Source: Eledone cirrhosa (taxonomy: Eukaryota). From it: a stretch of 64,000 bases of DNA. The notes beneath the pieces were generated by a model. The model saw only the letters and a list, made by a program, of their open reading frames with translations, did not search any database and was not told where the DNA came from. Below are positions 17,604 to 63,657 of this stretch, piece by piece. The stretch spans positions 26,908,001-26,972,000 of the forward strand of contig OZ024758.1 of the NCBI GenBank assembly GCA_964016885.1, written 5' to 3'. Positions within the stretch are counted from its first letter, which is position 1. Every line of letters begins with the position of its first letter. Made by a program: the position numbers and the translations under genes.

Positions 17604-17664
17604 TATTTTATCTGATGAGAGTGTACCAGAGTTTTGGTACCCTTGAAATATATATAATAGAATA
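17604..17664 (+). ncRNA. Type I hammerhead ribozyme motif (family C)
   Basis: tattttat CTGATGA gagtgtacca-gagttt-tggtaccctt GAAA tatatata atagaata: 8-bp stem I, about 9-bp stem II, (AT) palindromic stem III, AUA triplet, overlapping aataaa downstream. Confidence 0.8.
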
Positions 17665-17813
17665 AATATGGTTTTATAAATATAGTTTCCATTTATTTAA
17701 TATCATTGAATATTATACTCCAGAAAACTTGTTGAGTGCTTCGAATCAGTTATAAACATATATTTGTTGAATTAACAACAAATTAAATATCCCTTTTGCT
17801 TATATATATATAC

Positions 17814-18097
17814 TTGTGTATAATGGTAGCTATGGTGCTTCCATAGGCGGTATGCCAAAATTAGCACTCAATATTCATACAGTGTAACGTGTGAATAGTA
17901 TAAAAAAACGAAAAATCAGTGATGCATCTGGAGTCAGTTTATTGCGTGTTACAATTGTTTCGCCGGCAGGTAGCTCAAGACATGATCACTGTATGGATCT
18001 GGCTGATTCTACGGCTGCAGGTTCCTGCCGGCAAGACAATTGTAACACGCAATAGACTGAGTCCAGATGCATCACTGATTTTTCGTCTTTATACTAT
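17814..18097. mobile_element. Fold-back element family D (about 75-bp inverted arms + about 80-nt one-sided extension)
   Basis: Arms 17895-17970 and about 18023-18097 are inverted copies; the left arm reads cctgccggc GAAA caattg ta acacg c aataaa on the minus strand (3' half of a hammerhead); flanked by (TA)n. Confidence 0.65.
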
Positions 18098-18159
18098 ATA
18101 TATATTCATTAGTTAAGCAAAGGCAAGACCACAAATTTCACAAGGAAGACGTTATTTAT

Positions 18160-18818
18160 AGGGAGAAATTAGGAATAAGAGGGATCAGATGTTGTTTACT
18201 TGAGAGAAGACTACGTTGGTATGGTCACGTGATGCGCATGAAAGACGACAGCTGTATAAAAAAGTGCAGGGCGGTAAAAATAGACGGTAGCCACGGAGTA
18301 GGCAGACCCAGAAAAACCTGGGACGACTTGATAAATTCCGACCTCACACACTTACACCTCTCCAAGACAATGTCACTGGACCGAGATCTTTGGCGCTACA
18401 CAGTCATACAGAAGACCCGCCTTGCCTAAGTACAAAGCGAAACTTACAGTCAGTAGGCACCTCTAACAAAATACACCCCCATCCCACTACCCCCACCCCA
18501 TCCACACCACCCCCTTAAATGTGTAGTTATGTTGGTACCACAACATCCAGTCCGAAACAAATGAGGTCGTGTAGGTGTCACGACAAAAAAAAAAAACACA
18601 CAGTCCACGCTGTAATGTGGCCGTGTAGGTAACACGGTAAAAACCTCCCAGTCCACACTGTTAACGTAGTTGGTGTTAGGAAGGGCATCCAGCCGTAGAA
18701 AACCCGCCAGACAGTCCTATACGAGCAGGACAACAAATCTTGCCTCAAGTGGGAAAACTCCCGTCCAAACCCATGCAAGCATGGAAGATGGACATTAAAC
18801 GATGATGATGATGATGAT
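18160..18818 (+). mobile_element. RTE LINE family 1, 3' fragment (ORF end + 3' UTR)
   Basis: KLGIRGIRCCLLERRLRWYGHVMRMKDDSCIKKC...GRPRKTWDD...DRDLWR; (gat)n tail; near-identical to 32320-32965. Confidence 0.9.
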
Positions 18819-18875
18819 ATATACGCATATATATATACATATATCTATATATATATATATGCATATATATATATA

Positions 18876-19610
18876 TCATCATCATCGTTTAACGTCTATC
18901 TTCCACGCTAGCATGGGTTTAGACGGGAATTGTCCCACTTGAGGTAAGATTGGTTGTCTTGCTCGTATAGGACTGTCTGGCAGGTTTTCTACGGCTGGAT
19001 GCCCTTCCTAACACCAACCACATTTACAGCGCGGACTGGGAGGTTTTTACCGTGTTACCTACACAGCATGGATTGTGTGTTTTTTTTGTTGTGACACCTC
19101 TACGACCTCATTTATTTTGGATTGGATGTTGTGGTACCAACATAACTTTACAGAGAAAGGGGTGGTGTTGATGGGGGTGGAGTTGAGGTAGTGGGATGGG
19201 GGTGTATATTTGATTAAGAGGTGCCTACTGACTGTAGGTTTCGCTTTGTACATAGGCAAAGCGGGTCTTCTGTATAGCCAAAGATCTCGGTCCAGTGACA
19301 TTGTCTTGGAGAGGTGTAAGTGTGTAAGGTCGGAATTTATCAAATCGTCCCAGGTTTTTCTGGGTCTGCCTACTCCGTAACTTCCGTCTATTTTGATCGT
19401 CCTGCACCTTTTTATACAGCTGTCGTCTTTCATGTGCATCACGTGACCATACCAACATAGTCTTCTCTCGAGTAAACAACATCTGATCCCTCTTATTCCT
19501 AATTTCTCACTTAGTTCATTTATGCTTTGCCGTTCGCGTATATTACTATTACACATCCAACACAGCATGGATGCTTCGTTCCTCTCCAGTCTGCACAGGT
19601 CCTCTGCACA
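18876..19610 (-). mobile_element. RTE LINE family 1, 3' fragment
   Basis: ORF 19059-19568 gives RRLCWYGHVMHMKDDSCIKRC...GRPRKTWDD; (cat)n tail. Confidence 0.9.
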
Positions 19611-19781
19611 ATATATATATATATATATATATATATTTTGAGTTTATGTTGGTTGTATACCAACACCTCAGTATGCAGGCTGGAGCACTCGACGAAGTGC
19701 GCAGGTTGGTTTGGTTACTCCGGAGTAGTGTAAAATAAAGTTAAATAAAAGTCAAATGATTAAAATTTAGCTTCGTTTATT

Positions 19782-19836
19782 ACTGCTATATATATTTCAG
19801 TGACAGCCATCTTTGGCTGTGACCTCTTCAGGCAGT
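19782..19836 (-). ncRNA. Type I hammerhead ribozyme motif (family B)
   Basis: Reverse complement of the 20063-20117 motif. Confidence 0.8.
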
Positions 19837-20062
19837 TTGAATTAGTATGGTATAGACAAGTACATATGTTGTTTAGGTGTATGATATTGTCAATACTCTG
19901 ATATGCCCAGTTCCTTGCTGGGTTGTTAATTTACTGGGGAACTATATATGACTCCAGTTCCCCAGTGAATTAACAACCCAGCAAGGAACTGGGCATATCA
20001 GAGTATTGACAATATCATACACCTAAACAACATATGTACTTGTCTATACCATACTAATTCAA

Positions 20063-20117
20063 ACTGCCTGAAGAGGTCACAGCCAAAGATGGCTGTCACT
20101 GAAATATATATAGCAGT
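20063..20117 (+). ncRNA. Type I hammerhead ribozyme motif (family B)
   Basis: actgc CTGAAGA ggtcacagcc-aaagat-ggctgtcact GAAA tatatata gcagt aataaa: stem I actgc/gcagt, long stem II, AT-palindromic stem III, AUA triplet. Confidence 0.8.
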
Positions 20118-61275: not shown

Positions 61276-61341
61276 TATTTTGTCTGAGGAAGGCATAGCA
61301 TATTGTTAATATGATATCCCTGAAATATATATAATGAAATA
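61276..61341 (+). ncRNA. Type I hammerhead ribozyme motif (family C variant)
   Basis: tattttgt CTGAGGA agg-c-ata-g-catatt-gtt-aatatg-a-tat-c-cct GAAA tatatata atgaaata; downstream about 40 nt identical to those after the 17604 motif. Confidence 0.75.
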
Positions 61342-61855
61342 AATATGGTTTTATAAATATAGTTTCCATTTATTTAATATCGTATATATATATATATATA
61401 TATATATATATATATATATATATATATATATATATATATATATATATATAGACTGAACTGACTGGTTATAACTTTGTATTGGCGATCGAGTAACGTGAAA
61501 ATAAGCGGATAGCGATCTCTAGACCTACCAGTTCAGAGAAACAATTGTCAGCAATGAGATTAAAAACCTTTTTTGTATAGCAAACCGTGTCTCTCTTCTT
61601 TCCTGATTTATCATTACTCCAAGTGTTTACAACATAGGAATTACAGCATACTCGCAACATCACTATGGAAACGCCTTGTTGAGTCAAACTTAGCCAAGCG
61701 TTGATATCATCCACTACCCGGAGTACCATAACTGGACTACACCTAAGTGGACTACCTATAACAATAATTTGTTACCCCGTATATATATATATATATATAT
61801 ATATATATATATATATATATATATATATATATATATATATATATATATATATATG

Positions 61856-62470
61856 GTAAAGAATGAAACTAAATTTCATTTCTCACTCTTAGTACGGCTG
61901 ATACTTAAATATAAGTATGTATACGTACATACATATATGTATACAGACGTACAGTAGTATGTATATATATATACATACATGCACACACACACACACACAC
62001 ACACACACACACACACACACACACACACACACACACACATATATATATATATATATATATATATATATATATGTACGTATGGGTTTACCGAACATTTATT
62101 ATAATGTTCGGTTTGTTTGTAAACAAACAGCCCGAATTAAGCCGTACAGTGTCCGGCAACCATACTTTCAAACGTTCAATCATCTGACAGGAAGGTATAC
62201 GATGCTGACGATATCAAATAAGCTTGAAACTAGTTCATCGTTCCTTTGTCAGTGTTGAACAAAAGGGCAACGATGGTTGCCGAGCACTGTACGGCTTCAT
62301 TCGGGCTGTTTGTTTACAAACAAACCGAACATTATAATAAATGTTCGGTAAACCCATACGTACATATATATATATATATATATATATATATATATGTGTG
62401 CATGTATGTATATATATACATACTACTGTACGTCTGTATACATATATGTATGTACGTATACATACTTACA
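61856..62470. mobile_element. Hammerhead element family A, head-to-head inverted pair
   Basis: 61856-62163 homologous to 1936-2100/2285-2380; orientation flips at about 62164; flanked by (TA)n. Confidence 0.85.
62191..62246 (+). ncRNA. Type I hammerhead motif (family A), stem II damaged
   Basis: aagg-tata-cgatg CTGACGA tatcaaataagctt GAAA ctagtt catcg-tt-cctt; stem I perfect, stem II mutated, GUU triplet. Confidence 0.65.
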
Positions 62471-62652
62471 TATATATATATATATATATATATATATATA
62501 TATATATATATATACAGGGTGTCTCACAAAATGTATACGCACTTCAACAGCATTCTAATAAATATTGTGTTAATACGGCACCCTACGACTCTATCAGAAG
62601 TTATGGGACCACACACACACACACACACACATATATATATATATATATATAT

Positions 62653-62831
62653 ATAGGAAAAGGTTCAGGACTCCAACGGCAGAGCTCAAGCCGTTTCCAG
62701 AAATAGCCGTCGAAACGGCTTGACCCCCGTCGGGATCCTGAACCTTTTCCTATTACCCACTCTACTACCCTAAGTATTGAGTACTCTGGTGCGTTATGGT
62801 CCACCTGGTTCCTTACCACACTTCCTTCGTT
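62653..62831. mobile_element. Fold-back element family E, copy 1
   Basis: Imperfect inverted arms ataggaaaaggttcagga...tcaagccgtttc / gaaacggcttga...tcctgaaccttttcctat plus a 78-nt extension; flanked by (TA)n. Confidence 0.75.
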
Positions 62832-63013
62832 TTATATATATATGTATATATATAAATATATATATATATATATATATATATATAAATAAATATATATATA
62901 TATATATATATATATATATATATATATATATATATATATATATATATATATATATATATATATAAAATAAAGTTAAATAAAAGTCAAATGATTAAAATTT
63001 AGCTTCGTTTATT

Positions 63014-63068
63014 ACTGCTATATATATTTCAGTGACAGCCATCTTTGGCTGTGACCTCTTCAGGCAGT
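63014..63068 (-). ncRNA. Type I hammerhead ribozyme motif (family B)
   Basis: Same sequence as 19782-19836. Confidence 0.8.
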
Positions 63069-63251
63069 TTGAATTAGTATGGTATAGACAAGTACATATG
63101 TTGTTTAGGTGTATGATATTGTCAATACTCTGGTTAATGACTCCAGTTCCCCAGTGAATTAACAACCCAGCAAGGAACTGGGCATATCAGAGTATTGACA
63201 ATATCATACACCTAAACAACATATGTACTTGTCTATACCATACTAATTCAA

Positions 63252-63306
63252 ACTGCCTGAAGAGGTCACAGCCAAAGATGGCTGTCACTGAAATATATAT
63301 AGCAGT
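63252..63306 (+). ncRNA. Type I hammerhead ribozyme motif (family B)
   Basis: actgc CTGAAGA ggtcacagccaaagatggctgtcact GAAA tatatata gcagt. Confidence 0.8.
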
Positions 63307-63489
63307 AATAAACGAAGCTAAATTTTAATCATTTGACTTTTATTTAACTTTATTTTACACTACTCCGGAGTAATCAAACCAACCTGCGCACTTCGTCGAG
63401 TGCTCCAGCCTGCATACTGAGGTGTTGGTATACAACCAACATAAACTCAAAATCTATATATATATATATATATATATATATATATATAT

Positions 63490-63657
63490 AACGAAGGAAA
63501 TGTGGTAAGGAACCAGGTGGACCATAACGCACCAAAGTACTCAATACTTAGGGTAGTAGAGTGGGTAATAGGAGCTCAAGCCGTTTCGACGGCTAATTCT
63601 CAGAATTAGCCGTCGAAACGGCTTGAGCTCAGCCGTCGGGGTCTTACTGGTTCCTAT
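63490..63657. mobile_element. Fold-back element family E, copy 2
   Basis: Reverse copy of the 78-nt extension, then perfect 29-bp inverted arms 63572-63600 and 63602-63630; GAAA-cggct-tgagctc-agccg-TC forms a hammerhead stem III with GUC. Confidence 0.75.

Follow-up and report, generated by a model that had tools for sequence, protein, structure and literature searches.

How do repeat families that look unrelated come to share one insertion architecture, in which two arms stand head-to-head inside a (TA)n run, one arm stopping at a family-specific position (the short end) and the other extending further by a tail (the long end)? This question is raised by a stretch of 64,000 nucleotides from Eledone cirrhosa (NCBI GenBank assembly GCA_964016885.1, contig OZ024758.1, positions 26,908,001 to 26,972,000 of the forward strand), the whole of which is called the window here. 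A preliminary description, made from the letters alone, had distinguished six such families (A to F) and ascribed them to Penelope-like elements (PLEs), with the short and long ends marking two priming sites used in one integration event. A head-to-head inverted copy, a tail at one end, and a (TA)n target together are the published signature of PLEs (Arkhipova 2013; Craig 2021); head-to-head copies, one of them with a 31-bp tail, have been reported (PMC3846280), as have a 30-40-bp tail, often at one end, and (TA)n targeting, with Hydra-1_Obim of Octopus bimaculoides (PMC8557442).

In the present study, we examined copies of these families throughout the genome and found that a head-to-head pair almost always joins one short end to one long end. 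[quoted passage not shown]

Pairing of short and long ends

We sampled the genome with 12 queries against the species' own 3.0-Gb assembly, taking 30 loci from 40 scored candidates for each, so that the counts given here are samples and not a census. Three of the 12 queries contained a palindrome or a tail and were treated as biased; the others consisted of single-arm or upstream sequence, and chance copies within the loci of other families were added. The ends of families B-F clustered at two fixed sites genome-wide (92/95 ends in B, 93/100 in D, 76/80 in F, 148/176 in E, and 83/104 in C, where many of the exceptions in C and E are subfamily variants that were reclassified in the pair count), which bears out the bimodal 3' termini expected from the window. 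The expected enrichment of TA in the flanks was equally clear: (TA)3 lay within 18 nt of 452 of the 492 short or long ends of families B-F, versus 15% of positions drawn at random from the loci and 10% of those in the window. Two to four TA-like bases continue past all nine short sites and past the three long sites with known continuation; these bases could pair with the primer.

Among 117 head-to-head pairs of families B-F that were collected blind to architecture, 106 were short+long, none was long+long, and four were short+short, with one end unclassifiable in the remaining seven. A pair was counted only where the arms were not separated by a (TA)7 run. Three of the four short+short pairs represent a single rearranged locus in duplicated segments. 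Short and long ends occur at about equal frequency, so that about half of the pairs would be short+long if the sites were used independently; against this 50%, the observed count gives P=5e-27, with segmental duplicates possibly counted repeatedly among the pairs. The biased query sets gave 66 short+long pairs out of 69. In the case of family A, for which 30 loci were read by eye, the events with both ends resolved comprised 12 short+long and one short+short, and the remaining events were tandem-only, complex, or cut at the locus edge. Short+long pairing is thus nearly obligate in these families.

Target duplications and junctions

Exact informative target duplications spanning both arms were found in 18 of 134 pairs, compared with 0.41+-0.58 (maximum 2) in 200 shuffled pairings. 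One was 12 bp long, four were 13 bp, seven were 14 bp, three were 15 bp, and three were 16 bp; a duplication is visible only where the TA run is interrupted, and the boundaries were fixed per family. Because these 12-16-bp duplications enclose both arms, each such pair is one integration event, as had been supposed from the window.

The joints are also present in raw Illumina reads. In a run with variant B copies, the long end entered TA in 232 reads, and opposite-strand joints were found in 3, 4, and 9 reads (16 over three joints); the short end entering TA was found in one contig from another run. The arms of a pair differ by substitutions.

Arm lengths and 5' ends

The two arms of a pair vary in length independently. 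Of 124 junction-resolved pairs of families B-E, 49 had a short arm with the greater 5' extent, 30 had a long arm with the greater extent, and 45 had arms of equal extent. Family F was dropped from this comparison as its reference held an inverted arm; through the same flaw, B rows L125 and L129 were counted as long-longer, L129 being actually short-longer.

The arms had been described as 5'-truncated, but many of them stop at a family-specific point and not randomly. Measured from the short end, 46 of 65 bystander arms of E stop at -67 to -54 (within 14 nt), 30 of 38 of C at -187 to -161 (within 26 nt), 15 of 42 of B at -223 to -217 (within 7 nt), and 16 of 46 of D, with a query chosen at that spot, at -172 to -165. 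An initiator-like pyrimidine-A word is present at each of the modes in B-E. A ribozyme cut was considered as the source of the pile-up in E and rejected, because there is no core and the arms run past the candidate triplet.

Identity of the families

Upstream extension of B, C, D, E, and F reached frames for reverse transcriptase (RT) and endonuclease, as had been anticipated. With these open reading frames (ORFs) for B-F, and with A as a PLE-type non-autonomous unit, the assignment of all six families to PLEs or PLE-type units stands. Judged by their motifs, B, C, D, and E are Hydra-clade PLEs, and F is a linker/CCHH PLE of the Neptune/Nematis grade. The ORF of B contains RWK, DKT, CxCX5C, CxxC, and CxH, and CCHH is absent; RWK/DKT was seen in B alone, the N-termini of C, D, and E not having been recovered. 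In aligned segments, the upstream ORFs of C, D, and E have about 25-65% identity to B; they share the CxCX5C linker, which in D was read in a frameshifted copy where CxxC is degenerate. By eye, the frames of all four match the Hydra alignment (PMC8557442 supplement). The first ATG of B lies 54 nt after the long end, so that the B tail is non-coding. Family B is very young: a 181-nt stretch has at least 46 matches at 100%. Some of its copies keep an open frame from Met across the endonuclease (in L372, 859 codons before the locus edge is reached). Words of family B (window 62965-63452) occur at shares of 0.31-0.81 in runs under nine organism labels, with no RNA run among those listed; for this distribution, recent spread among relatives, or transfer, is possible. 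The 3' untranslated region (UTR) of family D is TG-rich and 2.6 kb long (L321:2900-5532), and its full length therefore exceeds the under-3-kb Hydra size.

The family F frame at locus L138 is open for 1,085 codons and encodes RT, a CX4CX2C linker, and a GIY-YIG domain with CCHH. In full-length F, the frame is open through the tail, and an ATG lies just upstream of the short end. The C-terminal endonuclease, the CX2-5CxxC-type linker, and CCHH were compared by eye with Neptune/Nematis, and these motifs place F as far as that grade; a homologue search gave unnamed proteins, and the closest named one was an Octopus vulgaris prediction (65% identity). With Pfam, the F fragments of the window gave GIY-YIG above and RVT_1 below the cut-off, and the other four proteins had no match (4/6 ORFs missed). 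No PDB match was obtained with the B protein. The B and F proteins gave no significant pairwise match; the two do not form a single family, and therefore the shared architecture spans distant clades. The N-terminal region of F (L138:2170-2850) is 25% asparagine, which may be compared with the Asn-rich inserts in Penelope ORFs of A. vaga (PMC3846280). A family related to F (L129, L181, L046) has the same short-end sequence as F, but a different, shorter tail.

In full-length B and F, the 5' pseudo-long terminal repeat (pLTR) reads through the short site, the tail, and the long site into the ORF; this read-through was seen for B and F, and inverted pairs were seen in all six families. Two other assignments were rejected. 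Family E is not Naiad, because all five ORFs carry a C-terminal endonuclease, whereas that of Naiad is N-terminal; and the PLE ORFs beside C (L204/209/210/211) and E (L181) are not cognate, as they belong to F-related families. Family A has no ORF, and no autonomous partner ORF was found for it; it is a PLE-type non-autonomous, non-coding 482-nt unit in arrays.

Predicted hammerhead ribozymes

The families had been described as ribozyme-bearing. With a custom type I descriptor, hammerheads were predicted in the element sense in A, B, C, and F (shuffles positive 0/60 each), and these are canonical motifs; the core of F has one mismatch in the window copies and is canonical in 30 of 44 genome copies. 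The description does not extend to E, in whose 3' UTR no hammerhead was found, and it is doubtful for D, which retains stem I, GAAA, and a stem III that is palindromic, in nearly the position relative to the ends that they have in B and C, with a non-canonical core variant in 16 of 17 copies. Rfam gave no hammerhead match, even on B, and its whole-window list was swamped by TA-repeat microRNA matches.

Structures in the window

Every structure in the preliminary description was recovered by self-comparison and reading. The tails, measured as the distance between the last non-TA bases of both ends and including a 2-4-nt TA overlap, are 58 and 54 nt in A, 99 nt in B, 92 nt in C, 85 nt in D, 80 nt in E, and 62 nt in F, close to the lengths first given; the range over all families, including the two families Y and U introduced below, is 54-171 nt. 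Pairs of divergent arms are present as described, except that the A locus at 53147..54362 is a tandem-plus-inverted array and not a simple pair. It consists of the 482-nt hammerhead tandem unit (1.7 units on the minus strand, long end at 53147) and an inverted short-ended arm at 53941-54362, within which a predicted type I hammerhead motif (54013..54057, plus strand; shuffles positive 0/60) has a palindromic stem III and a predicted cut after 54051. A diverged subfamily, A2 (61855..62469), has a long left arm and a short right arm, and the descriptor detects no hammerhead in it. A third A locus, outside the range described before, is a partial tandem on the minus strand at 1847..2382.

Family B, a Hydra-clade PLE 3' end, is present within (TA)n at 19637..20166 (left arm long, right arm short) and at 62965..63453 (left arm short, right arm long), where the long arm begins at the family's 5' pile-up point near 63137 and a predicted type I hammerhead motif lies at 63252..63306 on the plus strand, with a predicted cut after 63301. 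The Hydra-clade family C has two single arms on the plus strand, a long-ended one at 17600..17800 with a hammerhead motif at 17604-17664 and a diverged, short-ended one at 61246..61382 carrying a hammerhead motif. In the Hydra-clade families D and E, the left arm is long and the right arm short at 17813..18095 (D; hammerhead-like motif with a non-canonical core), the left arm is short and the right arm long at 62654..62831 (E; no hammerhead found), and, in a second subfamily of E at 63491..63654, the left arm is long but tail-only and the right arm short. Family F is found at 52324..52519 (left arm short, right arm long) and at 60451..60808 (left arm long, right arm short), the latter with a hammerhead motif near 60615-60655 that has one core mismatch. 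The arms of F are about 90% identical to the 3' end of the 5'-truncated, frameshifted element on the minus strand at 56280..58148 (RT, CX4CX2C linker, GIY-YIG endonuclease, and 3' UTR; short end at 56280), so that F is the 3' end of this element, as had been claimed.

Two families were absent from the preliminary description, and each is represented by a single long-ended arm in (TA)n on the plus strand: Y at 61451..61779, with a tail of 171 nt, and U at 60959..61123, with a tail of 118 nt. Elsewhere in the genome, the head-to-head pairs of Y and the clean head-to-head pairs of U were short+long in 3/3 cases each.

Other repeats adjoin these structures. At 18160-19610, two copies of an RTE-like long interspersed element (LINE) stand tail-to-tail across one TA run, a geometry opposite to that of the PLE pairs. 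A common fragment at 18097-18161 and 52531-52594 begins both times at a TA run adjoining PLE ends and is possibly another TA-targeting 3' end. Short repeats beginning TA-CAGGGTG (62515-62567, 52254-52300, and 4717-4776) are like Tc1/mariner-type ends. A TA-bounded repeat at 17300-17522 has a fixed right end and an internal hairpin, and there were no head-to-head pairs in its 26 local matches. The window also contains a 10-kb satellite (35090-45370; 324 copies of a 32-bp unit), other arrays with units of 31, 46, 78, and 104 bp, of which the 104-bp unit is built from the head of a sequence like a short interspersed element (SINE), and palindromes of inverted SINE-like ends at 46209-46333 and 50021-50078.

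Discussion

The structures studied here resemble canonical PLEs (Penelope of D. virilis; Pen2a_Av of A. vaga; Craig 2021 Fig. 2) in the 5'-truncated inverted copy, the tail at one end, the duplication, and the partial-tandem pLTRs; as in Pen2a_Av, the first codons of F lie in the pLTR and are continued by the tail. They differ in the length of the tails (54-171 nt versus 30-40 bp, a descriptive range), in the duplications (12-16 bp versus 8-10 bp in A. vaga PLEs), and in the regularity of the tail, which is described there as "optional" or often at one end, whereas the pairing here is 106:0:4. B-E share CxCX5C, CxxC, CxH, the lack of CCHH, the C-terminal endonuclease, and the (TA)n target with the Hydra clade (Craig 2021; Hydra-1_Obim), RWK/DKT being limited to B and the hammerhead to B and C; however, the hammerhead is called universal in that clade, whereas D has a non-canonical core and E has none, the 3' UTRs here are 0.7-2.6 kb, and 54 nt separate the B tail from the first ATG downstream. 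Family A resembles the non-LTR retrozymes (PMC7229834; bioRxiv 10.64898/2026.07.22.740005) in its tandem units, each with a predicted type I hammerhead, its lack of an ORF, and its relation to PLEs; it differs in unit length (482 nt versus the quoted 150-450) and in that its arrays end at two fixed sites with head-to-head short+long pairs. These fixed ends and pairs may be read as a mechanistic sign of mobilization by PLE machinery.

The closest experimental parallel is Poseidon PAc of Anolis carolinensis (Frangieh 2024), in which two fixed internal start sites bound the tail, the target is AT-rich, and a hammerhead lies upstream of the sites. PAc belongs to another clade and starts without target homology, whereas the sites here continue into 2-4 TA-like bases. 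In vitro, both strands were cut and extended, and a dimer was predicted (PMC11167929). Pairing within one product is not reported in the portion of that text available to us, nor are the tail and the pairing in the available portions of the Hydra PLE descriptions. The PLE literature searched contained no twin-priming model, no pairing count, and no tail >40 bp; such statements may be found in Arkhipova 2006, Evgen'ev and Arkhipova 2005, Pyatkov 2004, and Repbase, which lay outside this search. The strict pairing, the enclosing duplications, the long tails, and the 5' pile-ups are useful extensions of the published outline.

We propose that the GIY-YIG endonuclease would cut both (TA)n strands about 14 bp apart, a likely staggered cut, and that the two 3' ends would then prime at different sites, one at the short and one at the long. 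A single complex, probably dimeric, would likely contain two RNA templates (or two pLTR copies), and its halves would use different start sites. Synthesis of each complementary DNA (cDNA) would end either randomly or where the RNA has its 5' end, and the cDNA 3' ends would likely be joined head-to-head at short matches. Many Hydra arms would reach the RNA 5' end from the pLTR promoter, and the long arm may then serve as a small non-autonomous template. By leaving two TA runs as targets for a further insertion, each insertion would favor the next, and the nesting of the cluster in the window would be accounted for.

In L1 twin priming, both target strands also prime, giving an inversion within one duplication, and the arms copy different parts of one RNA. 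The PLE arms here, in contrast, are both copies of one 3' region, begun at two fixed sites.

We read the pile-ups, post hoc, as RNA 5' ends set by a promoter inside the pLTR, and consider this somewhat favored. In Penelope of D. virilis, a transcription start and an internal promoter lie within the pLTR (PMC2377424).

Several observations weigh against the proposed scheme or its parts. No pile-up was seen in family F, that of B overlaps an 8-bp palindrome and an ATAT word and could arise without a promoter, and that of D depends on the choice of query. Neither start site showed a strand preference in vitro (PMC11167929). Single arms of both kinds exist, three long-only ones (C, Y, and U) being in the window, so that two primings are unnecessary for every insertion. 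There was no exact duplication in 38 of 56 pairs with an interrupted flank, possibly owing to slippage subsequent to the insertion or to a short run reaching its end. A first, looser duplication test was weak (32/154 versus 14-27 shuffled), and the stricter boundaries were chosen after its result had been seen. Identity between the arms of a pair is barely above that between loci and does not separate one template from two.

Other routes to the same structures were weighed. Single priming may be followed by fold-back, in which the cDNA or antisense RNA primes itself (self-priming of antisense RNA was proposed in PMC3846280) and the endonuclease resolves the hairpin at the short site. This route yields one short and one long end directly, many junctions overlap by 1-10 nt, those of B are often centered on the 8-bp palindrome, and Craig 2021 ascribes the tail to endonuclease-mediated resolution. 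However, if a long-primed cDNA folds back, the short arm has to be contained in the long one; fold-back of this kind is excluded for many events because in 49 of 124 pairs the short arm extends beyond the long arm on the 5' side. The excess is up to about 2 kb (L121, L326, L333), and in several pairs the long arm is just part of the tail. We therefore regard fold-back as unlikely. Ordered use of one tandem or circular RNA, with a second priming or a template switch on another pLTR copy and with recutting of pLTR DNA by the endonuclease setting the short end, would suit the partial-tandem RNAs of PLEs, the head-to-tail arrays of family A, and the cutting of their own pLTR DNA by the Penelope and PAc endonucleases (PMC11167929). 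Of 11 single arms that abut TA directly, 10 had the short end, which also favors it; a rule that the short site is always first was not adopted, as the window has long-only arms, and the long-ended C, Y, and U arms count against ordered use as such. Moreover, pairs with both arms >700 nt (L122, L123, L127, L326) would need the same 3' region copied twice, and ordered use seems distinctly unlikely.

It is highly improbable that the pairs are two independent insertions into one TA run or a fold-back artefact of sequencing or assembly, although insertions here are concentrated in TA runs and assemblies have difficulty with palindromes. Independent insertions would produce long+long as well as short+short pairs and leave TA between their arms, whereas long+long pairs numbered 0, the pairs were counted without an intervening (TA)7, and the duplications enclose both arms. 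An artefact would be symmetric, whereas the arms differ by substitutions and the raw reads contain the joints. The reading that we prefer is priming by each cut strand at its own site.

PLEs are the sister group of telomerase, and the making of their tandem and inverted insertions has been named an open problem (PMC8557442). Our counts constrain the mechanism: each start site is used once per event, and fold-back fails for pairs in which the short arm is the longer. It is quite possible, if short of probable, that PLE integration is an obligately asymmetric twin priming, a rule common to Hydra, Neptune/Nematis-grade, and retrozyme-like families, and that the promoter-reaching arms are self-renewing 200-300-nt SINE-like units driven by PLEs. 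The young open copies of family B place a Hydra-clade element at hand for the in vitro assay of Frangieh 2024. In terms of annotation, the short palindromes that occur by the thousand in TA runs and resemble miniature inverted-repeat transposable elements or artefacts are PLE ends.

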